Assembly (NCBI RefSeq): GCF_000014265.1
Contig: NC_008312.1
Location: 6,510,001-6,542,000 of the forward strand
Direction of reading: 5' to 3'
Length of the DNA: 32,000 nucleotides
Source of the DNA: Trichodesmium erythraeum IMS101
GTDB taxonomy: Bacteria > Cyanobacteriota > Cyanobacteriia > Cyanobacteriales > Microcoleaceae
The notes under the pieces were generated by a model. It was not told the origin of the DNA, did no database searches, and was given only the letters and a program-made list of their open reading frames with translations. Position 1 is the stretch's first letter, and every line of letters starts with the position of its first letter. Of the stretch, positions 7,335 through 32,000 are shown in pieces. The position numbers were made by a program, and so were the translations under genes.

Positions 7335-9740
7335 ATGAAAATGGAAATAGATGAAGATATTCAAGCTTTCCTAATTGACAGCTATGAAACTATTAATAAG
7401 CTAGAGAGTGATTTGGTAGCACTAGAAAAACACTCGATAAATCCTGAGTTGATCCAATGTATTTATCGTTCGCTTCATACTTTAAAAGGAAACAGTGGAT
7501 TTCTCGGTTTAGATACCCTTCAATCTTTAGCTCATGCAGGGGAAAATTTATTGGCCTGTTTGCAAGATGGTAGAATTATTATCACTCCTGAGATTATGAA
7601 TGTTTTACTTCAGGCCATTGATGGGATTAAACAAATTCTCTACTGTCTTGAAACAACGGGAAAACAAGGAGATTATAACTATAACTCCCTCTTAAAGAAT
7701 TTGGCAAGTATCACCTCATCAGAACAGACTGAAAAAGCCCAAACAGAGGTTTCTTTAGACTATGAAGATTCTTGGCCTCAGTTGGAAAAAGTAGACAATT
7801 CTTCTCAAAATTTGAGCACCACTGATGCTCAACAGACAGCCTTTGTTGAGGAACAAGCACTCCCTGAAAAAACCGAGCAATTATTGAATACTTCAGAGAT
7901 TTCTTCAACGCTTCCTTTATCAGGAAATCTCTCGGAAGATATACTAACTACTAATTTAACTGCAAGTATCTCAGGTAATTACATTCGAGTAGATGTACAA
8001 CTGTTGAATCAATTGATGAATTTGGTGGGGGAGTTGGTCTTATGTCGTAACCAAGTCTTGGTATTTAATAATAGACAGACTGATAGTGTTTTTGGTGATA
8101 CTTCCCAACGTTTAGACTTAATAACAACAGAATTACAAGAAGGGTTAATGAAAACTCTGTTGCAACCAATTCGTAAAATTTGGAATAAATTTCCTAGAGT
8201 AGTGCGGGATTTATCTTTGTCCTTAGGCAAAGAAATAAATTTAGAAATGGAAGGAGAAGAAACGGAGCTAGATAAAACCTTAATTGAAGCTATTTCAGAT
8301 CCCCTCACCCATTTAGTGCGTAATTGTGTGGATCATGGTATTGAACACCCAGATATTAGAATTAGTAAAGGTAAACCACCTATCGGTAGACTTTGGTTAA
8401 GAGCTTTCCATGAAAGTGGTTATGTCAATATAGAGATAGGGGATGATGGGAGAGGAATTGATATAAAAAGGATTAAAGCTAAAGCTCTTCAGCGTCATAT
8501 TATTACTCATGAGCAAGCATCCTCTTTAACTGAAAATGAGGCATATAATCTGATTTTTATTCCAGGATTTTCTACTGCTCCAAAAATCACTAATATCTCA
8601 GGACGTGGAATAGGGATGGATGTAGTCCGAAATAACATCGAAAAAATTAGTGGTACTATTAATATTTCCAGCCAACTAGGTCAGGGAACTACTTTTAAAT
8701 TAAAAATTCCCCTGACTTTAGCTATTATCCCTACCTTAATTGTTACTACTAATGGCGATCGTTATGCAATCCCCCAAGTTAGTTTATTAGAATTAGTACG
8801 TCTGGAAGGGAAAGATGCTAAAAAAAAGGTAGAAATGGTTCATGGTGCCCCTATTTATCGATTGCGGGGTAATCTTCTGCCTCTTGTATATTTAGATAAT
8901 GTACTACAATTGGAAGCAAATAAGTCCCACCGTTATCCTTTGGCCACTCCCTGGTTAGAGGGTGTAAGTCTCAAGGGACAAAGTGATAACCTTGATATTC
9001 TCAATATTGTTGTTGTGCAAGCCGCGCATCAGTCTTTTGGTTTAGTGGTTGACGCTATTAATGATACTCAAGAAATTGTAGTTAAACCTCTAGGAAGACA
9101 GCTCAAAAAGATTTCTTGTTTTGCTGGAGCAACAATTATGGGAGATGGAAAGGTAGCATTGATTTTAGATATTCAGGGACTAGCTCAAACTGTTCATCTT
9201 GTTTCAGAAGAAAAAGATTCCTTGATAATAGCGCTAGAAAGTGAACCTCAACAAGCTTTTGATGAGTTGGAGATGTTATTGTTATTTTCTGGACCTGCTC
9301 ACCGACGGATGGCTATTGCTAGGTCTAAGGTTGCTCGTTTGGAGGAATTTCCCATTAGTTCTGTAGAGCATGTTGGTAATCAAAAGGTGATTCAATATCG
9401 TGAAAAAATCTTACCTTTGATTTATTTATCAGAGTTTTTTGCTACAAATCAATTATCTTCTCAAAGCCAAAATGTTCCTCAATTATTAACTATTCAAGTG
9501 GTTGTAGTAGTGATAGATGAGGATAATTTAGTAGGATTTGTGGTGGAGCAAATTATGGATATTGTGGAACAAGAAATTAAGATTAAATATGCTGCTATTG
9601 AAAAAGGAATTGATTATGCGGCAGTTATTCAGGAGAGGGTGACAGAAATTTTGAATGTGGAGGAAATAGTTAAGGTGGCTAATTTAAAGTTTGATAGAAA
9701 TTTTAAAGAGCAATTGTCAGACAAACAACTGGCAACATGA
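7335..9740 (+). CDS. cheA: Chemotaxis histidine kinase CheA (Hpt, dimerisation, HATPase and two CheW-like domains; no receiver)
   Basis: 801 aa. Hpt with phospho-His context SLHTLKGNSGFLG. Dimerisation region IRVDVQLLNQLMNLVGELVLCRNQ. N-box HLVRNCVDHGIE, G1 GDDGRGID, G2 SGRGIGMDVV. P5 CheW-like domain RYAIPQVSLLELVRLE...KVALILDI. A second CheW-like domain follows: LLLFSGPAHRRMAIARSKVARLEEFP...VTEILNVEEIV. Confidence 0.95.
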   Translation: MKMEIDEDIQAFLIDSYETINKLESDLVALEKHSINPELIQCIYRSLHTLKGNSGFLGLDTLQSLAHAGENLLACLQDGRIIITPEIMNVLLQAIDGIKQILYCLETTGKQGDYNYNSLLKNLASITSSEQTEKAQTEVSLDYEDSWPQLEKVDNSSQNLSTTDAQQTAFVEEQALPEKTEQLLNTSEISSTLPLSGNLSEDILTTNLTASISGNYIRVDVQLLNQLMNLVGELVLCRNQVLVFNNRQTDSVFGDTSQRLDLITTELQEGLMKTLLQPIRKIWNKFPRVVRDLSLSLGKEINLEMEGEETELDKTLIEAISDPLTHLVRNCVDHGIEHPDIRISKGKPPIGRLWLRAFHESGYVNIEIGDDGRGIDIKRIKAKALQRHIITHEQASSLTENEAYNLIFIPGFSTAPKITNISGRGIGMDVVRNNIEKISGTINISSQLGQGTTFKLKIPLTLAIIPTLIVTTNGDRYAIPQVSLLELVRLEGKDAKKKVEMVHGAPIYRLRGNLLPLVYLDNVLQLEANKSHRYPLATPWLEGVSLKGQSDNLDILNIVVVQAAHQSFGLVVDAINDTQEIVVKPLGRQLKKISCFAGATIMGDGKVALILDIQGLAQTVHLVSEEKDSLIIALESEPQQAFDELEMLLLFSGPAHRRMAIARSKVARLEEFPISSVEHVGNQKVIQYREKILPLIYLSEFFATNQLSSQSQNVPQLLTIQVVVVVIDEDNLVGFVVEQIMDIVEQEIKIKYAAIEKGIDYAAVIQERVTEILNVEEIVKVANLKFDRNFKEQLSDKQLAT

Positions 9741-11523: not shown

Positions 11524-13024
11524 TTTGCTTTCCTGATTTTTAAGTAGTTAGAATCAGGGCAATCAATGTTTGCTAGCAATCAATATGCTATTTATCATAC
11601 CAGATCCAGAAAAAGTGTTTATTATTACTAATTGTTAGGACGCGATATTATATAAAGTATTTAATTTTACCTGATTATTGTAATAGATAATTTTTTAACA
11701 ACGGTATTACTTTTAATATTTTACTAAAGAATAAGTGTTTATACCAAATCCATCAAGTGTGAGAGGGTATTTTTTCAACTTACAGCTTCTAACCCTAAAC
11801 GTGGAAACGGATTAGTTATAAATGTTCCATAGAACGTTTGTACAAAAAATATTAAAATTAACACAATTTGAGAGCGTTAATAATGCAAAAAGTTTATTAC
11901 CTTCGTATTAATTACTTTTACTTAAATTTATAAAGTTTGACAAAAAGTTAGTATTAATAAATGCTAATTAATATAAAAGCTTTTGTCAAGGGGTGAATAC
12001 TTAAAGTAGTTTGCCAAATATTGAGTTTAACAGGAGGCCTATATCAAGGGTTATACAGAAGAATTAGAAGTATGATTTAACTTAAAATAAGTATTTTTAT
12101 GAAGAGCTATAGCAATAATTTATCCTAATTGATTCGGAGATAAAAAATGTTATATAATAGTAAGTATATATTGAAACTCAAAGTACCTATTGAGGAGTTT
12201 CAATATTATGCTCCTGAATGGCGATCGCTGGATTTTTTAGCTTTTTTTAGGATATAAAAAAGCTTTAATTCACTTTGATATCCTACTTTCTGTTAAAACA
12301 AAGCAGAATGAATAGGATCAACTTTAATTAAGTTTTTTCTATAGTAAACCTGATTTGCTTTAATAAGAATATAATCTAGTTATTCAGCTATTTTATAAAG
12401 TTTAGTTTTTTTGTGGGGATATATCTATCTCACAGTCAACCTACTAGTTTTTTTACTTCCTAGTTTTGAAATTTGGAGGTTAAAGAGGGTTACCTTTTCT
12501 CTTCTCTTTTGGAGAACTAAAAAAGTTGATAGAAGCGAAGGGATTTGATTGTTCAGAAAATGAAACTTTTCTATAGCTTAAATGATTCAATAATTGCTAT
12601 AATAGAAGAGCTAAAGCTGTATCATAACCATTTTCTTTATTCATTATTTGGAGCTTGAGTAACAAATAGTTTTGATAGTTCAAACAATAATGGTTTCTCT
12701 CAGCATAATTTAATAACTCATAGTAGGGAGAATTATTATTATTCCCAATAATATGGACACGACCAAATGGATTTTTTCTCTCTAGTTTTTTGATCATGAA
12801 ATTTACTCAATACGATAATTGATGCTTATATTTAGTGCTAATAATTTTTTATATAAAACTTAAATAACAATCATAATATAATTATATTCAGTTGATTGAT
12901 AAATAAACAAAGTTACCTTTTAAGGGTGAGGCTTCAGGCTTATTTTTTCACAGAATACCCTATTTCAGTGTGTGATCTAGATCTTAATATCTTTAACCTT
13001 TTAGCCATTAAGTTAATAAGTAAT

Positions 13025-16290: not shown

Positions 16291-19200
16291 CTAAAATTTA
16301 AACTGATTTACTAATTCATGTAAGTCTCCTGCCGTTTTGGATAACTCAGTTGCAGATTTTTGGGTTTTGGCTGCTCCATTACTGGTACTTTGGGCTGTTT
16401 TTGCCACGCTGGTAATATTAAGGGCAATTCCCGATGACCTTTCTGCTGCTTGGTTAACATTACGGGCAATTTCATTGGTAGTGGCGGTTTGCTCTTCTAC
16501 CGCCGAGGCGATCGTACCTTGGATGTCATTAATTTGACTAATAATAGTAGTAATTTGACCGATAGCTTCTACTGCTCCTCTAGTATCCCCTTGAATAGCT
16601 TCAATTTTTTGACTAATATCTTCAGTTGCACTAGCGGTTTGTTTTGCTAATTCTTTAACTTCATTGGCAACTACCGCAAAACCTTTCCCTGCTTCTCCCG
16701 CTCTTGCTGCTTCAATAGTGGCATTAAGAGCAAGAAGGTTGGTTTGTTGAGCAATAGAAGTAATAACTTTAATCACATTACCAATTTCTGCACTACTAAC
16801 TCCTAACTTACCAATAGTTTCATTAGTCGTTTCAGCAGTTTTTACAGCAGTTGTGGCAACTTGAGCAGCATTAGTAGCATTTTTAGCAATTTCTTGGATG
16901 CTAGTAGTCATTTCTTCTACACCAGTAGCAACTGACTGAACATTAGCGCTCACTTGTGCAGCGTTACTAGAAACTGACTCTGCTTGAGTCGAGGTTTCTT
17001 GAGATGCTTGACTCATAGTTTGACTTTCCGCCATCATCTCCTCAGATGACTTGGCCACAGCGATCGCTGCTTTCGCAATTTTTTTTACTTGTTCAGTTAG
17101 GTTAGCTGCCATACCATTCACATTATCAGTCAACTCTTTCCATGTTCCAGCCACTCCTTCCACCTTCGCTTGGCCTCCCAATGTTCCTTCGGTCCCTACT
17201 TCTTTAGCCACCCTACTGACTTCAGATGAAAACCCATTGAGTTGGTCTACCATTTTATTCAAAGTAGTCTTCAGTTCCAATATCTCCCCTTGAGCATCAA
17301 CAGTAATTTTCTGAGTTAAGTCCCCCTGAGCAACTGCTGTAGCCACCTCAGCAATATTTCTCACCTGTAAAGTGAGGTTAGCTGCCATACCATTCACATT
17401 ATCAGTCAACTCTTTCCATATTCCAGCCACTCCTTCCACCTTCGCTTGGCCTCCCAATGTTCCTTCGGTCCCTACTTCTTTAGCCACCCTAGTTACTTCA
17501 GATGAAAACCCATTGAGTTGGTCTACCATTTTATTCAAAGTAGTCTTCAGTTCCAATATCTCCCCTTGAACATCAACAGTAATTTTCTGAGTTAAGTCCC
17601 CCTGAGCAACTGCTGTAGCTACCTCAGCAATATTTCTCACCTGTAAAGTGAGGTTAGCTGCCATACCATTCACATTATCAGTCAACTCTTTCCATGTTCC
17701 AGCCACTCCTTCCACCTTCGCTTGGCCTCCCAATATTCCTTCGGTTCCTACTTCTTTAGCCACCCTACTGACTTCAGATGAAAACCCATTGAGTTGGTCT
17801 ACCATTTTATTCAAAGTAGTCTTCAGTTCCAATATCTCCCCTTGAACATCAACAGTAATTTTCTGAGTTAAGTCCCCCTGAGCAACTGCTGTAGCTACCT
17901 CAGCAATATTTCTCACCTGTAAAGTGAGGTTAGCTGCCATACCATTCACATTATCAGTCAACTCTTTCCATGTTCCAGCCACTCCTTCCACCTTCGCTTG
18001 GCCTCCCAATATTCCTTCGGTTCCTACTTCTTTAGCCACCCTACTGACTTCAGATGAAAACCCATTGAGTTGGTCTACCATTTTATTCAAAGTAGTCTTC
18101 AGTTCCAATATCTCCCCTTGAACATCAACAGTAATTTTCTGAGTTAAGTCCCCCTGAGCAACTGCTGTAGCTACCTCAGCAATATTTCTCACCTGTAAAG
18201 TGAGGTTAGCTGCCATACCATTCACATTATCAGTCAACTCTTTCCATATTCCAGCCACTCCTTCCACCTTCGCTTGGCCTCCCAATATTCCTTCGGTTCC
18301 TACTTCTTTGGCCACCCTACTGACTTCAGATGAAAACCCATTGAGTTGGTCTACCATTTTATTCAAAGTAGTCTTCAGTTCCAATATCTCCCCTTGAACA
18401 TCAACAGTAATTTTCTGAGTTAAGTCCCCCTGAGCAACTGCTGTAGCCACCTCAGCAATATTTCTCACCTGTAAAGTGAGGTTAGCTGCCATACCATTCA
18501 CATTATCAGTCAACTCTTTCCATATTCCAGCCACTCCTTCCACCTTCGCTTGGCCTCCCAATATTCCTTCGGTTCCTACTTCTTTGGCCACCCTACTGAC
18601 TTCAGATGAAAACCCATTGAGTTGGTCTACCATTTTATTCAAAGTAGTCTTCAGTTCCAATATCTCCCCTTGAACATCAACAGTAATTTTCTGAGTTAAG
18701 TCCCCCTGAGCAACTGCTGTAGCCACCTCAGCAATATTTCTCACCTGTAAAGTGAGGTTAGCTGCCATACCATTCACATTATCAGTCAACTCTTTCCATA
18801 TTCCAGCCACTCCTTCCACCTTCGCTTGGCCTCCCAATATTCCTTCGGTTCCTACTTCTTTGGCCACCCTACTGACTTCAGATGAAAACCCATTGAGTTG
18901 GTCTACCATTTGATTCAAAGTAGTCTTAAGTTCCAATATCTCCCCTTGAGCATCAACAGTAATTTTCTGAGTTAAGTCTCCCTGAGCAACTGCTGTAGCT
19001 ACCTCAGCAATATTTCTCACCTGTAAAGTGAGGTGATCTGCCATACCATTCACATTATCAGTCAACTCTTTCCAAACACCAGATAACCCTTCTACCTTGG
19101 CCTGGACTCCTAATTTACCTTCTGTACCCACTTCCTGAGCAACCCGCGTTACTTCTGAGGAAAAACTATTAAGTTTGTCCACTATTTGATTAACAATGCT

Positions 19201-19743
19201 CCCAATACGGTAGAATTCTTCATTTAAGGGTTTTCCTTCGAATTGAAAGTTAATTTTTTTTGACAAATCTCCATTCGCCACTGCTTCTAAAACCAGAGAA
19301 ACTTCCCTACTAGGTTTGGTCCAATTATTAATTAGTTCATTGAGGCTATCAATACTTGATTTCCATGAGCCTTTAACTTCTGTGAAACTTTTTCTAGTGG
19401 TTAATTCTCCTTCTTGCCAAACTTCACGACTAATGCGCCCAATTTCTTCTGCAAAGTTTTGATTAATTGCTATCATTTGATTAAAAACAATAGCTACTTC
19501 TCCTAAGCCATTATTTTCTGGAATACGCACAGTAAAGTCTCCATCTCTAGCAGCTTTCATAGCTACTAATAATGGATTAATATTAGGATTATTATTTATA
19601 TCAATATCAGTTTTTAGTTGAGACCTTGGAGTTGATAAAATTGTTTCAGATTCAGTTATAGTTTCTGGTTTTTTTTCTACATTTATTTCAGTATCTTCAA
19701 AGAATACCTGAAGACCAGAATTTCGTTTTTTAGGAATTGTCAT
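16291..19743 (-). CDS. Soluble methyl-accepting chemotaxis protein with a poly-HAMP array (about 9 di-HAMP units) and a C-terminal MCP signalling domain
   Basis: 1150 aa with an ATG start and no hydrophobic TM segment anywhere. Residues ~56-877 are consecutive HAMP pairs (A.GDL..KI....GE...L...N.M...L pattern). The signalling hairpin tip is highly conserved: [37 protein letters not shown]. Two canonical methylation-site consensus matches are present ([10 protein letters not shown] and [10 protein letters not shown]), consistent with the adjacent CheB and CheR. Confidence 0.95.
17113..19044 (-). repeat. Seven in-frame tandem copies of a 276-bp (92-aa, di-HAMP) unit, about 98-100% identical
   Basis: The Met codons of MA(A/D)(N/H)LTLQ recur at 19044, 18768, 18492, 18216, 17940, 17664 and 17388, an exact period of 276. 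The 17648/17924 units look identical by eye, as do 18200/18476. Other copies differ at a handful of sites, giving I/T, V/A, S/T and K/Q substitutions. A more divergent di-HAMP unit precedes the array (residues ~146-233). Confidence 0.95.
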
Positions 19744-20077
19744 TTTAGCTATTAGTTATTATTTATGAACAAATGCAGCTATTTGCAGTCAGCTTTAAAT
19801 TATAATTTTGTTGGTACTTATCCCTTTAAAAGAGGATAGCTAAGACCTTATTGATTTTGTCAGAATTTTCTACTTTGACTTTCAACTTATTTAAAATATG
19901 ATTCATCAAGTATAAGTCTGTTACTGCTAGAACAAAGGGGTGGAAAAAGGAATTATTTTTAATAATCTAATTATTAACCTATTTTTACTAAAAAAGTTTA
20001 GATCCCTAGAAACCCAGTAGCTTTTAAAATCTCTTAAAATTGCAGGCTTATTTATGATGAATTAATGGTAAGTTTAG

Positions 20078-20878
20078 TTATGATAAATCTCTGGCTATTT
20101 CCATATAATTTTTAACAATTTGACTTGTGGGTGAAATATGAGAAATTGGCATACCCTCCTGTTGTGAGCGATAAACTAAAAGGGATTCTGGAATTTTATA
20201 TAGGGGATAAGACATTCTTTTTACTGCCTCCTCAATTTCTTCAAAAATGCTATTTTTTAAGCTTTTGTTTGATTTATGTGATACTTTAGATTTCGTATAA
20301 CGATTAAAAACAACTGTAAATCTATTAATTTTATGTATCGTCATTTCCTGAATGTTCTGACAATAAATTTTGAATTTTTCTAACGCCTCTAGAGAAAAAA
20401 CACTACTATCAATAGGAATAACAGCCTCATCTGCTGCTCGTAAACTATTGAGCATAAATAAGCCTGTGTCTGAGGGCACATCAATTAAAATATAATTATA
20501 ATAGGATTTAATTAGGGTTAATATTCGATTTAAAGTTCCGACTTTATCTTTACCTTGCTGCATTAAAATAGAAGCTGTTGCTAAATTTAACTCAGAGGGA
20601 ACTAAATGAAGATTTTCTATTTGTGTTGCTAAAATTGCCTGAGTAATAGGAACTCCTTGATATTGATTAAATTGATTTAAAATTACATCATAAATAGAGT
20701 TTTCTAAATTATTTTCATCAATTCCTAACCCAGAAGTTGCATTCGCTTGAGGATCAAAATCTACTACTAATATTCGACTTTTTGGATTAATTATAGTTAA
20801 ACATCCAGCAATATTTATGCAAATAGTAGTTTTTCCTGTGCCTCCTTTGAGGTTAGCGAAAGCAATAGTTTTAGCCAT
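20078..20878 (-). CDS. ParA/MinD-family P-loop ATPase (deviant Walker A)
   Basis: From the ATG at 20878: MAKTIAFANLKGGTGKTT (deviant Walker A KGGxxK[ST]), VVDFDPQANAT (ParA switch region), ILIDVPSDTG (Walker B). The ORF-track start at 20920 is TTG. It lies 334 bp upstream of the MCP gene on the same strand. Confidence 0.85.
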   Translation of the reverse strand: MAKTIAFANLKGGTGKTTICINIAGCLTIINPKSRILVVDFDPQANATSGLGIDENNLENSIYDVILNQFNQYQGVPITQAILATQIENLHLVPSELNLATASILMQQGKDKVGTLNRILTLIKSYYNYILIDVPSDTGLFMLNSLRAADEAVIPIDSSVFSLEALEKFKIYCQNIQEMTIHKINRFTVVFNRYTKSKVSHKSNKSLKNSIFEEIEEAVKRMSYPLYKIPESLLVYRSQQEGMPISHISPTSQIVKNYMEIARDLS

Positions 20879-21524
20879 AATTGTTGAATTATGATCTTTA
20901 CTATATATTTTTTTGATCAAAACAATGATTCTACTAAATCTAGTTATTATAAGTTGATTATAGACTCAATAATAATATAGATATCCATAATTAGCTTTTC
21001 TTTCCGATAATTTGAGTAATGATACTATTGCTAGTTTTTCAATCTGAAATACTCCAATTGTTTTTGTTAATATCATTATACATAACAATCTTCTTTTTAC
21101 CTTTTTCCAAGTCTGACCACTTTTGGGAAATAGGGAATAAGCTATAGGTTATAGGTAAAAGTCTCGGAGTTTATTTATAGTTTTCTTAGATCCTTTCGCT
21201 ATAGCGGTTATTATAGCAGTCTTATTTAAGTTGTAAGATTTTTTTTGCTGAGAGTTAAAAGTTAAATACTCAAGAGTTAGGGGCTATAACTTCAAAGTTT
21301 TTCAAGTAAAATTAATGGCTGTAAAATTATCGCAACTAATGAGTAAATTACTATATATAAATTTCTAGATAAGTTAATATGTTGTAACAAAAGTTATTAT
21401 AATGAATTAAATTTACATAAAAAATCAACTAGATATAAAGCTCCAAAATTGATAAGATAGAGGAAGAACTTCGACTACTAAACTTTAGCTTTTGACTTCT
21501 TCATCCTTTCACAAAGCTGTTAAT

Positions 21525-22598
21525 TTAAGCAGTATCATAGCTAGAATGCCTGACACAATTTCGGCCATTTTTTTTAGCAAAATAAAGAGCTTTATCGGCT
21601 TGAGAAATTAATTCGTCTAGATGTGATTTTATAGTCGGAATAGTTGTTGCTACACCTAAACTAATAGTAATATATTTATCAACTTTTGAATCCTCATTAA
21701 CAATTTTTAAACTATTAACTTGCATACGAATACTTTCAGCAATAAACATAGCTCTATGTTTGCCTGTATTGGGTAATACTACCACAAATTCTTCTCCTCC
21801 ATAACGAGCAGCTAAGTCTGTTGTTCTTGTTAAAGGTTTTTTAATTTCTTGAGCTACTTTTCTTAAACAAATATCCCCTTCAGGGTGACCATAAGCATCA
21901 TTAAATAATTTAAAAAAATCAATATCTATCATTATCAAAGAGATGGGCTGAGCGTCGTAGATAGATTTTTTCCAATCTTGTTGTAAGACTGTTTCCCAGC
22001 AATAGCGATTAGGAATACCTGTCAAAGGATCTGTATTTGAGATTTTTAGTAAATGTTCTAGCTGCTCATTTTGTTTCTTAAGTTCATCAGTTCTTATTCT
22101 GACTTCATGAGTTAATTTTTCATTAAAGCTATTTAATTGTTGTTCTCTTTGCTTGAGTTTTTGTACTAAATTAATTCTTTCCAAAGAATAGCGAATAGAA
22201 CGGATTAAGACTTCTGCTGAAATTTCATTTTTCACTAAATAATCCTGCGCTCCTTTTTGAACTACTTCAAGAGAAAAATCCTCATCATTCTTACCAGTTA
22301 AAACAATAATTGGAATATTAGTAGTTATTTCTATCATCTGGGAAATAGTCTCAAATCCTTGACTATCAGGTAGTCCTAAATCAAGTAAAATAACATCAAA
22401 ATTTGTTTGATTAAGTTGCTTAGTTGCTAAAGATAATGTACTACAATGAGTCACAAAAAACTTTAAGGATGATTCAAATTTTAATAACTGCTTAATAATA
22501 AAAGCATCCCCTAGATTATCTTCTACTAATAGGGTATTTAAAGAATCTTTTTGCTTAAGATAATTGTTCCTAAACATAGTTTTATTTTTATTAGACAT
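21525..22598 (-). CDS. Response regulator with GGDEF output (diguanylate cyclase, WspR/PleD-like)
   Basis: 357 aa. REC (LLVEDNLGD, VILLDLGLPDSQG, VLTGKND, DYLVKN), a coiled-coil linker, then a GGDEF domain. The active site RYGGEEF is intact, and an RxxD I-site (RTTD) lies exactly 5 residues upstream, the same spacing as in PleD. Confidence 0.92.
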   Translation of the reverse strand: MSNKNKTMFRNNYLKQKDSLNTLLVEDNLGDAFIIKQLLKFESSLKFFVTHCSTLSLATKQLNQTNFDVILLDLGLPDSQGFETISQMIEITTNIPIIVLTGKNDEDFSLEVVQKGAQDYLVKNEISAEVLIRSIRYSLERINLVQKLKQREQQLNSFNEKLTHEVRIRTDELKKQNEQLEHLLKISNTDPLTGIPNRYCWETVLQQDWKKSIYDAQPISLIMIDIDFFKLFNDAYGHPEGDICLRKVAQEIKKPLTRTTDLAARYGGEEFVVVLPNTGKHRAMFIAESIRMQVNSLKIVNEDSKVDKYITISLGVATTIPTIKSHLDELISQADKALYFAKKNGRNCVRHSSYDTA

Positions 22599-23206
22599 TT
22601 AACAAAATTATATTTTGCTATTTTATTTTTTTTATGTTAGGATAAGGATCTGAGAATTCATCAGGAAAGAAATAAAAATTAGGGGTTAGTGAAAGCACAA
22701 AACATTAGATAGGTAATTAGGCATTCCGCTTCTGTCAAAACTGTCTCCGTCTTTCTAAAAAATAAGTCAAAACTAGTCTAGATATAAGAATTACCTTCAT
22801 GCCATAAAAATGCCTAGAGCCCTTGCTGATTTAGGATTTATACTTTTTTGACCCAAGACCTTTTGTCCATCTATATTTGAGCCTGTTTTCTAGGTCTATT
22901 TTGTTTAAGTTCCACCCAGGGATCACTGTTTCTAAGAATTCAGAGAGGAGGGGATTTTTCATGATCTAGATACAAATTATAAATACTCACGCCTTTTCAC
23001 TATAGTTTTTTTTAATGAGATCTAAAATTAAGAATAGCTTATTTACTAACATCTAAAATGGAAGGCTAATATTCTTACCTGTTTGTATGTATGGATGCTT
23101 TTTATTTCAAACCATTGTCTAAAAGCAGCCTGGTTTTTTATGCAATTCAAATAAAATTTATATTTTTGTTCTCGTTCCTATTAATTATAACTACTCCCTG
23201 CCTATT

Positions 23207-25552
23207 TTAATTCAACTTTTCTATTGATGGCGTTTTGGGATCAATAATTTTTTTACTCTTACCAAATTTGATACCTAAACTCATCTTATGTCCTTCACCC
23301 AGAATGTTTGTTACTAACCCCACACCAAAACTTTCATGCATCACTTTATCCCCGACTTGCCAACTTTTTATTTGATTACTTACCGATTTTTTTCCAACAG
23401 TATTTTTTGTGTTTTTCCTTTGATGCTTTGACGGATAAATTACTTTTTTCATCCCATTAGTATTAATCAAATCTCTTGGTAATTCTCCCAAAAATTGAGA
23501 TGGAACTGTGGCATCTCTTGCTCCCCAAAGCTGTCGTCTTTCAGTTGCATAAGAAAAAAATAATTGTTCTTCGGCTCTAGTAATACCTACATAACAAAGT
23601 CGCCTTTCTTCTTCTAAAGATAAAGGGTCATTTATGCTCCGAAAATGAGGTAATAAACCTTGCTCCAAACCCACTATAAATACTACGGGAAATTCTAAAC
23701 CTTTAGCAGAATGTAAAGTCATTAAAGACACAGCTTCCTGCCCATCTTGAAGGTTATCTAAATTAGAAGCTAAAGAAGCATTTGCTAAAAAACTTCCTAA
23801 AGTTGTATCTTCATTATCTTCTTGAAACTGAGCTACAGCACTACATAATTCTCCTAAATTTGCCAGTCGATTATCTGCATCTTCCGTATCCTGTTTTTTC
23901 AAGTTTTCAATATAACCAGAATTTTCTAAAATTCTCTCAACAATTTCCAGAGCAGTCAAATTTTCTAACTCATCTTGCAAATGTTGAATTACTTCGGCAA
24001 ACTTATTTACAGCTTTTGATGAACGACCTGCCAAAGCATTTACTGAAGCTTGATCATTAATAATTTCCCACAAAGGTATTCCCATCTGGGAACTAGCATT
24101 TAATAAACTATCAATAGTTGCCTTGCCAATACCCCTTCTCGGAGTGTTAATAATTCTGAGTAAACTAACAGTATCAGCAGGATTTGCAATGACTCGTAAA
24201 TAAGCTAAAGCATCCTTAATTTCTTTCCGATCATAAAATCTCAATCCCCCAATTATGACATATTTAATATCATAATGAATCAACTTTTCTTCGAGGGAGC
24301 GTGACTGAGAGTTTGTTCGATAAAGTACAGCGAAGCTTCCTAAATCTAAGTCTGGATATTGGTCTGTAATTTCTGCAATTTTACTACAAATAAATTCTGC
24401 TTCTTCTAACTCATTTTCTGCCTCATAACAATAAATTTCTTCCCCTATGCCCCTGGTTGGTTTGAGAGTTTTGTCAATACGTTGAGTATTATTTTCAATC
24501 AACTTATTTGCCACTGCCAAAATATTTTCCCGTGAGCGATAATTTTCCTCCAACTTAATCATTGTCTGAGTATATTCATCAGCTAAACCATCGCCAAAAT
24601 CATTCTGAAAATCAAGCAAAATTGTATAATCTGCCATGCGGAAAGAATAAATAGATTGGTCTACATCTCCTACCACAAAAATAGAACGATTTTCCCAGTT
24701 TTTAATATATTTAGGGTCTTCACCATTAGTAGCTAAAAATCTAATAAAATTATATTGAGTCCGATTAGTATCTTGATATTCATCTACTAAAATATGATTA
24801 AAACGTTGATACCAATAAGCTAATATTTGCTCATTTTGCCGAAATAATTCTACTGGTATTCTGATTAGGTCGTCAAAATCAAGAGCATTGTTCGCAGCTA
24901 AATTATCTTGATAAATTCCATAAACTTCAGCAATTACCCGTCCCCGATAATCTGGCTCGGCTCTTTGATATTCTAGAGGTGACATTCCTTGGTTTTTAGC
25001 ATTACTAATGGCATATCTCACAGAACGTGGTTCAAATTTTTTATCATCCAAATTTAGCTGTTTAGTGACAATTTGCTTAATTAAACTTTGAGCATCACTT
25101 TCATCAAATATAGAAAAATTTTTATCCCAATGACGTTTTTTTTCATCCTGATATTTGTTAATATCAAACCTCAGAATACGAGCGCAAAGATTATGAAAAG
25201 TTCCCACCCATAAATGTTTAGTGATATTTTTGTAGACTTGCGATCGCAACCTGATTTGTTCTTCTGATGTCAATGCTGAAAATGGTTTGTTATATTTAGC
25301 TTCCGCTTGTTCTTGAGCAAATACTTTTTCAATGCGGTCCTTCATTTCCTGTGCAGCTTTATTTGTAAAGGTAACCGCCAGAATATTTTCTGGATGTACC
25401 CGATGATGACGTATTAGATGGACTACACGATAAGTCAACGCCCTAGTTTTGCCAGACCCAGCACCCGCCACGACCAACATAGGTCCGCAGAAATGTTCTA
25501 CTGCTTGGCGTTGGGATAAATTTAGCTGAGTCAGAAAGTCAGTGCTTGGCAT
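23207..25552 (-). CDS. pcrA: ATP-dependent DNA helicase PcrA/UvrD (SF1A), housekeeping type
   Basis: 781 aa with all SF1 motifs: Q LNLSQRQAV, I AGAGSGKTR, Ia AVTFTNKAAQEM, II LVDEYQDTN, III VVGDVDQSIYSFRMA, IV ENYRSR, V TLHSAKGLEFPVVF, VI CYVGITRAEE. There is also a C-terminal WQVGDKVMHESFGVGLV Tudor-like tail. Confidence 0.95.
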   Translation of the reverse strand: MPSTDFLTQLNLSQRQAVEHFCGPMLVVAGAGSGKTRALTYRVVHLIRHHRVHPENILAVTFTNKAAQEMKDRIEKVFAQEQAEAKYNKPFSALTSEEQIRLRSQVYKNITKHLWVGTFHNLCARILRFDINKYQDEKKRHWDKNFSIFDESDAQSLIKQIVTKQLNLDDKKFEPRSVRYAISNAKNQGMSPLEYQRAEPDYRGRVIAEVYGIYQDNLAANNALDFDDLIRIPVELFRQNEQILAYWYQRFNHILVDEYQDTNRTQYNFIRFLATNGEDPKYIKNWENRSIFVVGDVDQSIYSFRMADYTILLDFQNDFGDGLADEYTQTMIKLEENYRSRENILAVANKLIENNTQRIDKTLKPTRGIGEEIYCYEAENELEEAEFICSKIAEITDQYPDLDLGSFAVLYRTNSQSRSLEEKLIHYDIKYVIIGGLRFYDRKEIKDALAYLRVIANPADTVSLLRIINTPRRGIGKATIDSLLNASSQMGIPLWEIINDQASVNALAGRSSKAVNKFAEVIQHLQDELENLTALEIVERILENSGYIENLKKQDTEDADNRLANLGELCSAVAQFQEDNEDTTLGSFLANASLASNLDNLQDGQEAVSLMTLHSAKGLEFPVVFIVGLEQGLLPHFRSINDPLSLEEERRLCYVGITRAEEQLFFSYATERRQLWGARDATVPSQFLGELPRDLINTNGMKKVIYPSKHQRKNTKNTVGKKSVSNQIKSWQVGDKVMHESFGVGLVTNILGEGHKMSLGIKFGKSKKIIDPKTPSIEKLN

Positions 25553-25679
25553 ATTTGGATTTTATATAAAGCAGATAATATATTGAATTTTATCACCAGA
25601 CTAAAATAAAATAGCAGGTTGAATTTTATTTTACAGCTTGAATTGAAAGCCTAATGCACTATCAATAAGAACAAATGGT

Positions 25680-25700
25680 TTATTGTCTGTTAGACAATAA
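25680..25700. repeat. Perfect inverted repeat TTATTGTCT-gtt-AGACAATAA, about 130 bp upstream of the pcrA start
   Basis: 9-bp arms with a 3-nt spacer, read directly. It is a candidate operator or hairpin; no known box was recognised. Confidence 0.4.
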
Positions 25701-25877
25701 GAAACAACAATGCAATAACCTTAAGTTGGTTGTTCTGGGAACTAAACCAGAGTAAAGCTTTATTGATTAGGACTTAAAGTCTTAGTTGCTAAATAGCTTT
25801 CATAGCTTAAGTTTTTTTGTAGCTGTAGTCAAGCTTTAACCAGAAATGTTAATTTTTATTAATAATTATTTTTTTTT

Positions 25878-25906
25878 TGACTTTTTTCAATCTATGTGAT
25901 ATAATA
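25878..25906 (+). promoter_or_regulatory. Near-consensus sigma-70-type promoter (TTGACT, 17 nt, TGaTATAAT)
   Basis: -35 TTGACT at 25878-25883. The spacer is exactly 17 nt. The extended -10 is TGATATAAT, with TATAAT at 25901-25906. It points toward the helicase gene about 1 kb away. The surrounding DNA is A/T-rich, which raises the chance of such a match occurring at random. Confidence 0.3.
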
Positions 25907-26423
25907 TAATAAGTTTTGTTGACAAGATTAGGTAGAAAAAGAAAACGAAAACCTATCCTTAATTACTTGACCCTCGACTGTATTGTTAATACTACTATTA
26001 GGTATGAATTCCATAATCCACTGATAGTTAGCATCAGTTTGTCATCAAAATTACTCTTATAATTAGAATAAATATGGCTGAGCTCTCAATAAAGTTTAAC
26101 TCCGGCTTCCGTCGTTTTCACAGCTTACCCACAATTAAATTTAAATTTTGCTTTTCTGACTTTTGCTGTTCAGTTAATTCTCATCCCTGAGATTTTCATT
26201 GTGAGGCTTTACATTTGAATAAAAATCAACTTTACTTATTTAAAATAACACATACATAGGGATCTTGTAGCAGTATTAGTAGTGAGGGAAAACTATGTGA
26301 ATAAGTAGCTTGAGTCAAGAGCAGTTTTGTTGTCTGGGTCGTAGATAAATTACAAACTGCGGTCAGTGGTATATGCATGAAACACTGCAGCTAACTCCAA
26401 AGCTGATGCAATTCCCGATCCAT

Positions 26424-26467
26424 GTAAGTTTGTGGTAAGTTTGGGGTAAGTTTGGGAAAGTTTAGTA
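26424..26467 (+). repeat. Four tandem 11-bp units (gtaagtttgtg / gtaagtttggg / gtaagtttggg / aaagtttagta)
   Basis: Read directly from the sequence. The period is about one helical turn (11 bp), and the repeats lie about 450 bp upstream of the helicase start at 26914. They look iteron- or operator-like, but function is unknown. Confidence 0.6.
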
Positions 26468-26913
26468 GAACGGATCCAGATATTGTATATTGGTTGTAGA
26501 AGAGAATATAGAACAACTTGTCCGTAACTGTTGTATCAACAAGCTTTGTATAAACAAACCTTACGGCTTTTTACAACAGAACTTTGAGGAAGTTTCTCCA
26601 GCAATACGATATCAGCATAATATCACTAAACCGTATTTCATCCTTATGCTTGGTCTCAAAGAAGAAAAAAGGCTTATGGGAATTAGATAGCAAAACTCAC
26701 AAGGGGTAACATCTTAATTGCCAGAAAAATGGGCAAAGTATTTTGTTCTTAGCACCTTACTCACCCTACTTCAAAAAGGTTGAAGATAATTTTGTCATTC
26801 TCAAAAAGCAACGGATATATTCTCCACTAAACATATACAATCTCTAAAATAATTTTTGGTTGAAAATAAGTGTTATATGCTACTATAGATTTATGTGACA
26901 GTAATCTAAAACT

Positions 26914-29223
26914 ATGGCATATCATAGCAGAGGTGGAGTAAGAGATGGTGCAGGTAGACCTTCTAAAGCTCCTACTAAAACAATAAGAATTGAAGAAAAT
27001 TTGGCGGATAAAATTAAGAAATTAACGACCAAATTAGAATCTAATTACATTTTAAGTAAGTGGGAGAGTCTAGAAAACTTTCTGCTACATAATCAAACTT
27101 TCCCACAGCAAGATACAAATAATAAACTACCTCCAAAATTATCAAAAGCTTTAGAGGATAAAGCACTAGTAGAAATGCTAGAATTAATTTTTAGTAAATT
27201 TTCTCCTGGTGATTTTATTGACTATTGGTCAGATATTGACCTTACTGAAATAGAACCTATATCAGAAACTCAGTTGGCAGTGTCAAACGTATTACATGAA
27301 GCTACAACAGAGAAAGGATATACAGTAACCACTCCAGAAGTAAACAAAGTTTTGGATGTGACACTAGAAAAGTCAGAAGTTCTTTCAGTAGTTGAGTTTT
27401 CAGACTATAAGAATAGTAATGGAAATTTCTTAACTCAAGAGCAATTTAATATTTTAGAAGCTGTGCGCGATAGAATATCAGTTCCACTCCGCGATCGCAT
27501 CCCTCAAGCTGAGAAAAAAGGATTATTAATTGAAGCATTAGCTGGTACTGGAAAAAGTACAATGTTAGCTGAGATAGCTAAAGTTTTGAAGTCTGAAAAT
27601 CTATCCCCACTAGAATGCAGATTTGTTGTATTTGGTAGGAAAAATAAACAAGATTTAACTGATAAATTATCAGAGATAAAATGGGATAAATCAGTACAAA
27701 CTCTTAACAGTTTAGGCTATGAAATTTTGAGAGATGCACTAGGTAAAGGCCATAAACAATTTAGACTTAATAATGGAAAGTATGAGAAAATAGCTCAGGA
27801 TAAAGGTTATTTAGATTCTTATAATAAATGGGGTGAAAAAATACCAGGTAAATTACCAGTCGAAAATCGTAAGGGAGACTTAGCTATTATATCAAAGGCT
27901 GGTTTTGTAGATTTATTAGATAAAATGAGATTGCATTGTTATTTTCTAGATGAGATTAGTAGCGATGATGTATGGGAGATAGCAAATAAATATGGAATTG
28001 AAATATATAAAAATAGTCTAGGTGAAATAACTGAGGCTGTTTGTGATATTTTAGAGGCTGGTTTAAATGATGGAATTAATAAGTTAAATATAGATTTTTT
28101 AGACCAAATTTGGTTATTGTGGCACGACCAAAATGTATATAAAAATGTGTTTAATAAATGGTCAAATAAACTGAAAGTTATTTCTATAGATGAGTGTCAA
28201 GATACAGATTTGTTGCAGATAGAATTTATTAAATTGCTGCACAAATCATCTAATGATTTTATAATTGCAGTAGGCGATCGCTTCCAAGCAATTTATAGTT
28301 TCAGAGGCTGTTTAACAGATGGAATTGATGTAATTGCCAAAAAATTTAACTGTGATAAAATGCCATTAACTACTAACTGGAGATGTGGCAAAAAACATCT
28401 AAAATTAGTTAGAGATATTTACCCACATATAGATATTAAACCAGCTCCTACAGCTCCAGATGGTGAAATTAGGATTATCAAAGAGAATCACTTTTTAGAT
28501 ATATTTGATAGTGCTGATAGGAGTTTATCATTTTTTGGTGTTTGTAGGAAAAATGCACCCTTACTTATTTTTGCCATTAGACTTTTAACTGCTGGATATC
28601 CTGCCAGAATTAAAGATAGAAATTTAGGGGCAAAATTACTAAATAAAGTCAAGGAAGTTGTGAGAGGTAATTATGATGTTAATACTTTTTTGAGTCAGGT
28701 TGATAATTGGTTTAATTTTCAAGCTAATTCTATTAATAGATTGCCAGAAAAAGTTCAGAACCAAAGGTTAACTGAACTGAGAGATTATAGAGATTGTTTG
28801 GTGGCTTTTTTTGCTAAATTTCAACCTAAAAGTTTGAATGATTGGAAAACAGAAATAGATAAGATTTTTGATGAATCAACTACTACTAAAAAAATTATAG
28901 ATTTATATACTATTCATAGTGGTAAAGGTGGAGAAGGACATTATACATTTATTATTTATCCTGAGAATATGCCTATAGAATTTGAGAAGCAAAGCACAGA
29001 AGAAAGGCAGCAGGAACAACATAACATTTACGTTGCTTTAACCCGCTGCCTGACTCGTGCTAAAGGTGGTATTTTGTGGTTGGTGTTGGAGGGTAAAAAG
29101 GATCCAATAACTTACCCTAAATGGTTACCAGATGAATACCGTCAGCTTTGGAAAGATGATAAAGATGAGGCCTTTGAGACTGATTTAGAAAATTTAGGAG
29201 ATGAGTATGATATTGAGTTTTGA
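26914..29223 (+). CDS. Divergent SF1 UvrD-like helicase with an unassigned ~190-aa N-terminal region
   Basis: 769 aa. Motifs align with the pcrA copy in this same window but are divergent: Q LTQEQFNILEAV, I ALAGTGKST, Ia FVVFGRKNKQDL, II ISIDECQDTD, III AVGDRFQAIYSFRG, IV TNWRCG, V TIHSGKGGEG, VI IYVALTRC. The N-terminus reads MAYHSRGGVRDGAGRPSKAPTKTIRIEENLADKIKKL (Gly/Arg-rich, then an RHH-like strand-helix). No nuclease motif was recognised. Confidence 0.85.
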   Translation: MAYHSRGGVRDGAGRPSKAPTKTIRIEENLADKIKKLTTKLESNYILSKWESLENFLLHNQTFPQQDTNNKLPPKLSKALEDKALVEMLELIFSKFSPGDFIDYWSDIDLTEIEPISETQLAVSNVLHEATTEKGYTVTTPEVNKVLDVTLEKSEVLSVVEFSDYKNSNGNFLTQEQFNILEAVRDRISVPLRDRIPQAEKKGLLIEALAGTGKSTMLAEIAKVLKSENLSPLECRFVVFGRKNKQDLTDKLSEIKWDKSVQTLNSLGYEILRDALGKGHKQFRLNNGKYEKIAQDKGYLDSYNKWGEKIPGKLPVENRKGDLAIISKAGFVDLLDKMRLHCYFLDEISSDDVWEIANKYGIEIYKNSLGEITEAVCDILEAGLNDGINKLNIDFLDQIWLLWHDQNVYKNVFNKWSNKLKVISIDECQDTDLLQIEFIKLLHKSSNDFIIAVGDRFQAIYSFRGCLTDGIDVIAKKFNCDKMPLTTNWRCGKKHLKLVRDIYPHIDIKPAPTAPDGEIRIIKENHFLDIFDSADRSLSFFGVCRKNAPLLIFAIRLLTAGYPARIKDRNLGAKLLNKVKEVVRGNYDVNTFLSQVDNWFNFQANSINRLPEKVQNQRLTELRDYRDCLVAFFAKFQPKSLNDWKTEIDKIFDESTTTKKIIDLYTIHSGKGGEGHYTFIIYPENMPIEFEKQSTEERQQEQHNIYVALTRCLTRAKGGILWLVLEGKKDPITYPKWLPDEYRQLWKDDKDEAFETDLENLGDEYDIEF

Positions 29224-29467
29224 AGTGTTTCGGCTGTCGTAGACATTAAAAGCGGAGCAATTGCAGTCTATATCGCTTCCTATTTCTACTTTGACCAAAA
29301 ATTATATTTGTCTATTTTTAAATCTCTAAATTCATCGAACTTTCAAATGTTATTTAAAGTAAAATTTTTGGCACAAGTATTTATCAACTAATTAATAACA
29401 GTAAAATTACCCTTGCTTATCTAACTTTTGATAGGTAAGATAATACTACTCTTTTGTAATAATTTCC

Positions 29468-29891
29468 ATGACACACAATACCTCAGTAAATACTCCATAT
29501 CTAGTCAAAACCCTGAGACAGGGTTTAGGACTATCTCAGACAAAATTTGCTAAACACTTAGGTATGTCATTCCAGACGGCAAATAATAGGGAAAATGGAC
29601 ATAGCCGCTCATCTCCAATAGTGATAAAATCAATCTACTCACTAAATTAAGGTATTAGGAAAAGATAAAACAGGTTTATTAAAGAGGTTTTTGTCTGAAG
29701 AGTCTGGAGTAAGTTTAGCAATTTTATTTCAGGCGTTACAACCTTTATCAAAACTAGAAAGAATGTCTAATATTACTGAGGGAGTAATGGAAATGAGTGA
29801 TGAAGAAGCTCATTATTGGTTTGGTAAAATTAATAATGGTAAACGCAGTCCAGCTTTGAAAGCGATGAGAGTTTTATTAGGAGACCTGTAA
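29468..29891 (+). pseudogene. XRE-family HTH gene apparently split by a +1 frameshift (ORFs 29468-29650 and 29646/29691-29891)
   Basis: ORF1 has an XRE HTH (LRQGLGLSQTKFAKHLGMSFQTANNRENGHSRSSP). It stops at 29648-29650 inside ctaaattaagg. The +1 frame is open from 29646 (IKVLGKDKTGLLKRFLSEESGVS...) and continues into the second ORF, which has only a TTG start. One indel would fuse them into a protein of about 140 aa. The usual RWENG Trp is Arg here (agg instead of tgg). Confidence 0.5.
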
Positions 29892-29955
29892 ATAAATATA
29901 TATATCGCGGCCATATTTTCACTAATATCTATCCATTATTTATAGGAAAAAATAA

Positions 29956-32000
29956 ATGAATAATTCCCAACGTCCGACTGTTTTTATTGAAAAAATTATG
30001 CCTGTGAAATTATTAAATCAACAGGTTTATTATGAACATGGAGGTAATCCTTTTAAGGGGTTGCATCGCTGGTATTCTCGTAAACCTTTATCGTTTTCAA
30101 GAGCTTCGGTTTTAGCTTCTTTATTGCCTGATGATATTTCTGTAGAAGAGTTTGAGTATTTATTAGGGTTGAAAAAGCGGAGCAATTCTATTCAAAAAAG
30201 TGAACAGTATAAAGATGATACTAGGCTTTATAAAATTCCTCCTGATGAAACAAGAATTAAGCAGGTACATGACTACTGTGAGAAAACCTGGGGGACGAGA
30301 ACACCTACTATTTTGGATGCGTTCGGTGGTGGTGGGAGTATTCCTTTTGAAGCAGCGCGGTATGGGTTGAATGTTTTGGCATCAGATTTGAATCCGGTGG
30401 CAGTGGTGACAATGAAAGCAGCGATGGAATATCCTTTGAAATTCGGACCTGACTTGCAGCAGGATATTGATAAGTGGGTGCAGTGGGTAGAGGATGAGGC
30501 AGAGAAACGGTTAGCTGAGTTTTTCCCGTCGTTGCCAGGGGAAACGGTGCAGAATTATTTGTGGGCCCATACGGTGGTTTGTCCGAGTTGTCAGTCGGTT
30601 GTGCCTTTGAGTCCGAATTGGTGGTTATACAAACGCCCGGAAAAGCAGAATTTACATAAATGGTGTGCGGTGAAACCTATTCCTAATCTTGAAGGGAAGC
30701 GGGTTGATTTTGAGTTGATAAAAGGAAGTAAGGGAAAGGGTACGACTATTAAGACTGATGAGGGTGAGTTCGACCCGAATGATTACAACACTATTAGTAG
30801 GGGTGTGGGTAAATGTCCGAATTGTGGTAGCGTGATTGAGGATGATGCAATTAAATCTCAGGCACGGTCAGGAAAGCTTGGGCATCAAATGTATGCAGTG
30901 GCATTTAAAAAAGGTAAGGGAAGTTTAGAGTTTAGATTACCTCAAAATGTTGACTTTGATGGATTGGGTAAAACTGATTATTATTTGAATAGTAGTTTTG
31001 AGGAATTTCAATTAAGTGGTTTATTACCAGAAATCGAAATTAACTCTGGTGAGAAAACAGACGAACTTATTAGATATGGAATTAACCAATGGTCAAAATT
31101 ATTTAATCCCCGTCAACTTCTAACCCTTGTCACTTATGTCGAAATTATTAACGATGTTAAGTTACAATTACAAGCAGAATATGAACCCGATAAAGTAGAG
31201 GCGATCGCTACTTATTTGACTTTGCTCCTAGAGCGGTGCATTGATAAAAATTCACGTTTATCTTGTTGGGATTCTTCGGTTGCAGTTGCTCAAAAGGCTT
31301 CTGTACAACACTCACTCAACTTGATGTGGAATTACCCAGAATTTAGCGGTAATGGAAAATTATGGAATTGGTGTTCCGATGTTACTTCAAATTACCAAAA
31401 GCTTTGTGCATTATTCAACTCTAAACCCCTACCTATTGACACCCAACAACACAACAAAACAATTCAAATAGACTCCGCATCAGCAGACACCCTCTACCAC
31501 ATCAGCGATAACTCAGTAGATGCCATCATCACCGACCCGCCCTACTACGCCACCATTCAATACGCCGAACTATCGGACTTTTTCTACGTCTGGCAGCGCC
31601 GAGTCTTAGGCGATATCTTCCCCGACCTCTACTTAACCGAACTCACCGACAAAGACAGAGAAGCAGTTGCCAACCCCTCCCGCTTCCGCAACATGGGAAC
31701 ATCCCCCGATGAACTTGCAAACCAAGACTACGAAGCAAAAATTGCACTCGCCTTTGCCGAACATTACCGAGTCTTGCGCGACGACGGCGTAATGACGGTA
31801 CAATTTAACCACAAAGAGTCCGGCGCGTGGGATGTCTTAGCAAAATCTCTCATTGACGCTGGTTTTGAAATCACCGCATCTTGGGCAGTCAGTACTGAAA
31901 ACCCCCAAAACCTCCATCAAGCTAAGAAAAATTCTGTTTCCAGCACCGTCTTACTTGTCTGTCGCAAACGTGACCCCAACGCCCCTCAAGCATGGTGGGA
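29956..32000 (+). CDS. Zn-ribbon DNA methyltransferase of the DUF1156 / COG1743 type (5' partial view; the ORF runs off the window end)
   Basis: Translated by hand from the ATG at 29956: 681 codons with no stop up to position 32000. It is absent from the ORF track, presumably because it has no stop in the window. N-terminus MNNSQRPTVFIEKIMPVKLLNQQVYYEHGGNPFKGLHRWYSRKP. SAM motif I ILDAFGGGGSIPFEAARYG. Cys pairs CPSC ... CPNCG form the Zn ribbon. LFNPRQLLTL is present, and catalytic motif IV is AIITDPPYY. An AGGA lies about 10 nt upstream of the start. Confidence 0.85.
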   Translation, partial: MNNSQRPTVFIEKIMPVKLLNQQVYYEHGGNPFKGLHRWYSRKPLSFSRASVLASLLPDDISVEEFEYLLGLKKRSNSIQKSEQYKDDTRLYKIPPDETRIKQVHDYCEKTWGTRTPTILDAFGGGGSIPFEAARYGLNVLASDLNPVAVVTMKAAMEYPLKFGPDLQQDIDKWVQWVEDEAEKRLAEFFPSLPGETVQNYLWAHTVVCPSCQSVVPLSPNWWLYKRPEKQNLHKWCAVKPIPNLEGKRVDFELIKGSKGKGTTIKTDEGEFDPNDYNTISRGVGKCPNCGSVIEDDAIKSQARSGKLGHQMYAVAFKKGKGSLEFRLPQNVDFDGLGKTDYYLNSSFEEFQLSGLLPEIEINSGEKTDELIRYGINQWSKLFNPRQLLTLVTYVEIINDVKLQLQAEYEPDKVEAIATYLTLLLERCIDKNSRLSCWDSSVAVAQKASVQHSLNLMWNYPEFSGNGKLWNWCSDVTSNYQKLCALFNSKPLPIDTQQHNKTIQIDSASADTLYHISDNSVDAIITDPPYYATIQYAELSDFFYVWQRRVLGDIFPDLYLTELTDKDREAVANPSRFRNMGTSPDELANQDYEAKIALAFAEHYRVLRDDGVMTVQFNHKESGAWDVLAKSLIDAGFEITASWAVSTENPQNLHQAKKNSVSSTVLLVCRKRDPNAPQAWW

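Follow-up and report, generated by a model that had tools for sequence, protein, structure and literature searches.

What kind of system lies at the right-hand end of a 32,000-nucleotide stretch of Trichodesmium erythraeum IMS101 DNA (contig NC_008312.1, positions 6,510,001 to 6,542,000; the whole stretch is hereafter referred to as the window, with coordinates counted from its first base), where a UvrD-like superfamily 1 (SF1) helicase, a small helix-turn-helix (HTH) gene and a DUF1156-type methyltransferase follow one another? A sequence-only reading had taken these genes for a single module of a restriction-modification-like (R-M-like) defence system, with a DUF499-type ATPase partner expected just past position 32000. 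Our analysis favours with good confidence a composite locus, in which a decaying defence operon of the Hma type sits next to a separable helicase typical of mobile elements, over a new system. The locus thus calls for a correction: it belongs, in degraded form, to a defence family already on record, and its predicted partner has been deleted rather than placed downstream. It also offers a base-resolved case of defence-operon decay by microhomology deletion with both alleles found in Trichodesmium populations.

Hma systems consist of the SNF2 helicase-nuclease HmaA, the DUF1156 methylase HmaB and the DUF499 ATPase HmaC (PMC11232893), and are represented in PADLOC (Payne et al. 2021, as cited in PMC11232893). 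When the Hma system of Halomonas meridiana was tested, only HmaA was shown to defend, and did so on its own (PMC11232893). A type-2 architecture of DUF499-centred, bacteriophage exclusion (BREX)-related (BR) systems has been described as well (Nucleic Acids Res 2026, PMC12839542). According to the working model for Hma/BR systems, self DNA carries the marks of the methylase, the DUF499 ATPase serves to assemble and target a scanning or recognition complex, and DNA left unmodified is restricted by the nuclease-SNF2 helicase (PMC12839542).

The methyltransferase places the locus within this family. It matches PADLOC HmaB (8e-72) and NCBIfam DUF1156_antiphage (1.8e-73) best in the respective collections, as well as Pfam DUF1156 (5.7e-9), and the motifs on which the sequence-only reading had relied are all present in an open reading frame (ORF) that leaves the window (DAFGGGGS at residue 121, CPSC at 209, CPNCG at 287, NPRQ at 384 and DPPY at 527). 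Together these features describe a DUF1156-type N6-adenine methyltransferase with a zinc-finger insert in its target recognition domain (TRD), as expected of Hma, and the earlier assignment to a DUF1156/DUF499 R-M-like defence family holds under the present names of Hma and DUF499-centred BR systems.

The DNA closest to the window belongs to a contig (L007) of a Trichodesmium metagenome-assembled genome (MAG), which is 99.45% identical to window positions 20001-29696 and carries pcrA, the adjoining gap, the helicase and the HTH gene in the same order, followed by a 1,090-residue DUF499 ATPase (best PADLOC match HmaC, 1.7e-101) and a 143-residue DUF7680 gene. Homology between the two ends at window position 29696 (L007 12784) and restarts at 29689 (L007 16356), from where it runs on to 29895; the eight overlapping bases, TTTTGTCT, are present twice in L007, at 12777-12784 and 16356-16363. 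The window is without 3,579 bp of the L007 sequence, comprising the entire ATPase gene and the 5' 229 nt (first 76 codons) of the DUF7680 gene. What is left of the latter is readable as an ORF (29691-29891) that covers positions 76-141 of the 141-position DUF7680 profile (E 5e-26; the full-length L007 gene matches at 2e-45), and a tblastn search of the window with the L007 ATPase gave no match, leaving this copy without the DUF499 ATPase of an Hma system. The supposed frameshift in the XRE-type regulator finds a different explanation here, as the HTH_3 gene is intact at 60 residues and the coding sequence that follows it is the unrelated 3' stump of DUF7680. The single copy of an 8-bp direct repeat at the junction is a signature of microhomology-mediated deletion. 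Furthermore, an independent environmental contig of the same species (L008, from the WILS17-1 metagenome) reads through the identical deleted junction, so that the deleted allele is real, both alleles exist in nature, and an assembly error is an unlikely source of the 3.6-kb deletion.

The architecture from which this remnant departs is seen in close relatives, where the order is HTH-DUF499-DUF7680, a two-gene insert and DUF1156, followed by an SNF2 helicase with an HKD (PLD) nuclease domain. The methylases of these loci are 83% (L001-L005), 88% (L091) and 77% (L006) identical to that of the window. The HKD-SNF2 helicase is full length in L006 (1,102 residues; HmaA 2e-62, PLD_Helicase 3e-75), interrupted by the contig end in L091, and shortened to about 220 codons in L001-L005 (about 12944-13603 in L001). 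In every close relative (L001-L006, L091 and the Okeania contig L011) the DUF499 gene lies on the upstream side of the methylase, and not past it as had been predicted for the window. A metagenome scan added 55 further methylase loci at 60-77% methylase identity. DUF499 and DUF7680 accompany the methylase in 19 of the 20 whose upstream flank exceeds 6 kb, and the HKD-SNF2 gene is present in all 18 whose downstream flank exceeds that length; in a single locus of the 55, L142, the methylase and SNF2 genes precede DUF499. Neither a relative of the UvrD-like helicase nor a detectable homologue of the small HTH gene occurs in any of the 55. DUF7680 is full length and conserved in more than 40 loci, and the DUF499-DUF7680 adjacency is ancestral across cyanobacteria. 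No mention of DUF7680 was found in the literature searched.

A second loss separates the window from its relatives. In L001-L005 and L091, about 1.1 kb between DUF7680 and the methylase holds a 79-residue UPF0175-like gene and a DUF3368 gene, both absent in the window; in the Okeania contig L011 the two genes still follow DUF7680, with the methylase missing, and L007 ends just after the start of the first, UPF0175-like one. From their adjacency and the nature of the two families, we presume that the pair could be a toxin-antitoxin module.

Taken together, these comparisons show a cyanobacterial Hma operon that runs HmaC-DUF7680-HmaB-HmaA, which in Trichodesmium and Okeania also has a leading HTH gene and the two-gene insert, and which was probably carried as cargo next to the helicase in one Trichodesmium/Okeania lineage. 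In the window, recombination between the two 8-bp direct repeats removed the 3,579 bp, and a separate loss of about 1.1 kb the two-gene insert, with the HTH gene, the DUF7680 stump and an apparently intact methyltransferase remaining. The methyltransferase has probably become an orphan ("solitary") enzyme, for which the promoter of the HTH gene may now drive transcription. With the ATPase gone, the locus is most likely a non-defending remnant in which defence by the full system has been lost, although methylation of the chromosome by the solitary methylase may persist. The two alleles could serve to test the contribution of the DUF499 ATPase.

Comparison with the described systems shows shared features as well as differences. 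As in Hma, the window methylase corresponds to HmaB, the L007 ATPase to HmaC and the SNF2 protein of the relatives to HmaA, and small modules are inserted inside the operon as reported for Halomonas. The window differs in the deletion of HmaC and in that HmaA, if present, lies outside it (beyond 32760); the cyanobacterial relatives differ in carrying an N-terminal HKD/PLD nuclease on the helicase, in contrast to the C-terminal PD-(D/E)XK nuclease of Halomonas HmaA. The relatives also resemble type-2 BR systems in composition, with a DUF499 ATPase, a small standalone gene, a DUF1156 N6-methylase with a zinc-finger TRD and an HKD-SNF2 helicase. Their small gene is, however, DUF7680 and not DUF3780, as judged by profile search, with no Pfam DUF3780 match even at E <= 5; the cyanobacterial version thus has DUF7680 where described type-2 systems have DUF3780. 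The window copy departs further from this architecture, lacking the ATPase and retaining only the 3' third to half of the small gene, and resembles the solitary methyltransferases that decaying R-M systems leave behind, with an apparently intact enzyme kept and partner genes lost by deletion.

The relatives also show variation of their own. L006 contains extra operon genes at 6421-7662, namely an HTH/Peptidase_M78 (ImmA-like) gene and a PIN toxin pair, and one methylase cluster (L089-type, P0089) is annotated as fused with or adjacent to a RayT/REP transposase, both consistent with the operon being an insertion hotspot as in Halomonas. The component that is lost varies as well: the ATPase in the window, part of the HKD-SNF2 gene in L001-L005, and in L011 (17536-19741) both the methylase and the SNF2 helicase, neither of which was found in the 10-kb downstream flank. 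These differing losses indicate recurrent, independent decay in Trichodesmium and Okeania and suggest a rapid turnover of the system in these cyanobacteria.

The helicase that precedes this remnant is separable from it. The sequence-only reading had described it as a second, highly divergent SF1 helicase with a novel N-terminal region, and indeed its 769-residue ORF combines a helicase core, with Walker A (AGTGKS, residues 210-215), DECQD (426-430) and later motifs invariant in the family alignment, with some 190 N-terminal residues that match no Pfam or PHROG family and are clade-specific. It shares its core motifs with the UvrD/PcrA/Rep-family SF1 helicases of plasmids and phages, from which this N-terminus sets it apart, and its best phage-family match is PHROG 1967 "DNA helicase" (3.5e-58). 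No nuclease domain is detectable in it. All its relatives in the family come from filamentous cyanobacteria, namely Trichodesmium, Okeania, Microcoleaceae, Phormidium and allies, and a ratio of non-synonymous to synonymous substitution rates (dN/dS) of 0.16-0.20 indicates that the gene is maintained. Gabija was considered as an alternative affiliation and rejected: the helicase gives only partial matches to GajB profiles (best E 3e-26, best stretch residues 392-522), and no GajA-like ORF is adjacent.

Away from Trichodesmium and its Okeania counterpart, this helicase keeps quite other company. DUF499, DUF7680 and DUF1156 are absent within the flanks (up to 10 kb per side) of the 16 other helicase-family loci checked in reference genomes (L012-L027). 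Across these loci and L011, a tyrosine recombinase is found in seven and a PrimPol/primase in four, and the remaining neighbours include a primase-PolB fusion, a MobA/VirD2 relaxase, a type IV secretion system coupling protein, a DUF3854 protein, a Rha antirepressor, a ParM-like protein and several conserved unknown proteins. Two copies of the family reside on the Phormidium plasmid pPhorR1S1_2, and distant homologues on four cyanobacterial plasmids in PLSDB. The gene directly 3' of the helicase can itself be unrelated DNA-modification cargo, as with the C5 cytosine methylase of L024 (12257-13333) and the MmeI/Eco57I-type enzyme of L025 (12786-16121), which suggests a variable cargo hotspot beside the helicase in cyanobacterial mobile elements. 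It is from these conjugation, replication and integration neighbours, together with the copies on plasmids, that we read the helicase as a probable backbone gene of plasmid-like, conjugative or integrative elements, with a variable cargo position beside it; the family fits this class, which is an inferred and not a curated one, and the window retains no such neighbours.

The transition into the helicase shows further features of its own. The region upstream of the gene at 26829-26913 is common to the window and the Okeania locus L011. Just before it, a 69-bp segment (26759-26827), single copy in the window, is 88% identical to L011 17731-17799, where it sits about 195 bp 3' of the DUF3368 gene, in the position one would assign to the methylase; a boundary or a repeat of the transferred block is one possible explanation. 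Between the window and L007, synonymous divergence (dS) of the helicase is 0.026 (12 changes), about six times the 0.004 (2 changes) of adjacent pcrA, a difference that rests on small counts but could mean that the helicase/Hma block has undergone recombination or gene conversion.

How far do alternative accounts of the locus survive these observations? An intact and possibly new helicase-XRE-DUF1156 module, with its DUF499 partner just past 32000, would agree with the family of the methylase, with the shared orientation of the three genes and with the single locus, L142, in which DUF499 follows the methylase and SNF2 genes. It is nonetheless very unlikely, as L007 places DUF499 between the HTH gene and DUF7680, exactly where the window has its junction and a truncated DUF7680, as the gene is upstream in all the close relatives named above, and as the XRE gene carries no frameshift. 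Of the module proposed at the outset, the co-orientation stands while the linkage of helicase and methylase does not extend outside one narrow lineage, with none of the 55 methylase loci and, within flanks of up to 10 kb per side, none of the 16 other helicase loci checked joining the two; the doubt then voiced over the helicase as a standard component was justified, and of the two options offered at the time, "two adjacent systems" comes out as essentially right and a new variant gives way to a decayed known architecture. Even more remote is the converse polarity, in which the ATPase would have been inserted in L007 instead of deleted in the window. A comparison of two alleles alone cannot polarise the event, but what the window has of DUF7680 is the 3' part of a gene conserved at full length in more than 40 loci, the adjacency of DUF499 and DUF7680 is ancestral, and the junction holds one copy of the repeat that flanks the segment in L007, as a deletion would leave it; we rejected the insertion on account of the truncated DUF7680 and give it almost no credence.

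A closer contender is a lineage-specific Hma variant that would have recruited the UvrD-like helicase as a motor in place of the HKD-SNF2 protein, the window being a damaged copy of it. Two genera share the helicase-HTH-DUF499-DUF7680 block although its flanks differ between them, the helicase and the rest of the block being co-oriented and 245 bp apart; L001-L005 combine a helicase 3' remnant with an HKD-SNF2 gene cut to about 220 codons, and L011 is without an SNF2 gene in its 10-kb downstream flank. Yet the helicase is missing from all 55 methylase loci, where the HKD-SNF2 gene is constant given enough flank, and its 16 other loci combine plasmid or mobile-element contexts with a lack of Hma genes. 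It also has no detectable nuclease domain, the ATPase and methylase persist in L001-L005 after its loss, L011 is itself degraded with its methylase missing, and in L024 and L025 the place directly after the helicase is taken by R-M cargo of other kinds, which fits a cargo slot better than a functional partnership. Such a recruitment is therefore improbable, and we likewise hold it unlikely that the SF1 helicase and the HTH protein are working parts of an Hma variant replacing a decaying HKD-SNF2, or that the methylase is kept as a solitary epigenetic enzyme of a bloom-forming, nitrogen-fixing cyanobacterium, its natural populations segregating intact and deleted alleles. Several observations do weigh against a decayed Hma operon beside an unrelated mobile-element helicase. 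The helicase has Hma genes beside it only in the window, in the conspecific contigs L007 and L008, and in a single contig from Okeania, L011. In the latter the adjacency of helicase, HTH and DUF499 recurs in a second genus, with a helicase that is 89% identical and an upstream flank of different mobile-element genes. Ahead of their HTH gene, L001-L005 moreover preserve a 57-bp piece of the 3' end of the helicase, a remnant which implies that the block is ancestral to a small clade and that L001-L005 shed the helicase but kept the ATPase and methylase. These data leave room for a functional helicase-Hma link in the Trichodesmium/Okeania lineage. Finally, the window ends inside the methylase, before the position of any HKD-SNF2 gene, and if an intact HmaA (HKD-SNF2) lies downstream some activity could remain, since HmaA alone defended in Halomonas (PMC11232893). 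A decaying Hma-type operon with a separable helicase remains the reading that we prefer.

Under this preferred reading the methyltransferase is the one core Hma component of the window that appears intact and, by sequence comparison, looks functional: it deviates at 3 of 359 columns invariant in 23 relatives, and its dN/dS is 0.36-0.40 (versus L001 and L091). The full-length protein (P0001) has 934 residues, and the same genome encodes a 93%-identical paralogue (P0002), such that it probably carries two Hma-type loci. A search with the N-terminal HKD domain of the downstream helicase returned only short fragments and missed even known full-length relatives, so that its lack of a hit from the source genome carries no weight. 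The HTH gene, located directly upstream of the DUF499 ATPase gene in L001-L005, L007 and L011 and likewise 60 residues long in L007, differs from its L007 counterpart by four non-synonymous changes and one synonymous change, indicating fast evolution with a dN/dS of about 1 from small counts. These changes were rejected as a specific sign of relaxation after the deletion, as L007 and L011, both of which retain the ATPase gene, likewise give a dN/dS of about 1 when compared with each other.

The layout of the window end, with ORFs taken from an ORF scan and three-frame translation of the window, is given in Table 1.

Table 1. Features between pcrA and the end of the window (window coordinates).
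Feature	Position	Strand	Description
pcrA	23207-25552	minus	Full UvrD/UvrD_C/tudor architecture
Gap between pcrA and helicase	25553-26913		1,361 bp; only short mechanical ORFs (41-66 aa); also in sister strain L007
UvrD-like SF1 helicase	26914-29223	+	769 aa; Pfam UvrD-helicase 3e-23, AAA_19 6e-12
HTH_3 (XRE-type) gene	29468-29650	+	Intact, 60 aa; HTH_3 2e-8
DUF7680 3' stump	29688-29891	+	Codons 77-143 plus stop; readable as 66-aa TTG ORF from 29691
Deletion junction	29689-29696		Single copy of 8-bp repeat TTTTGTCT
Second junction	29895-29899		About 1.1 kb absent versus L001-L005, L091
DUF1156 methyltransferase (HmaB)	29956 to beyond 32000	+	First 681 of 934 codons; predicted stop about 32760
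Methylase motif I DAFGGGGS	30316-30339	+	
Methylase Zn-ribbon CPSC	30580-30591	+	
Methylase Zn-ribbon CPNCG	30814-30828	+	
Methylase DPPY	31534-31545	+	

The 1.36-kb non-coding gap noted earlier after pcrA is confirmed by this annotation. An Rfam scan of the whole window, this gap included, gave zero matches, and a promoter and terminator scan of 25500-30100 stayed at chance level. Elsewhere in the window, an AT-rich stretch at about 5500-7500 (GC content 0.19-0.24) contains no ORF of at least 120 residues between 5751 and 7335. A 1,150-residue methyl-accepting chemotaxis-type protein is encoded on the minus strand at 16291-19743 and includes a tandem array (17095-19191) of 7.6 copies of a 276-bp unit (97% matches), which encodes repeated HAMP domains and has a GC content of about 0.43 versus about 0.31 in its surroundings. 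In MAG contig L007 this repeat region corresponds to two shorter genes, which probably reflect assembly repeat collapse or a difference in copy number.

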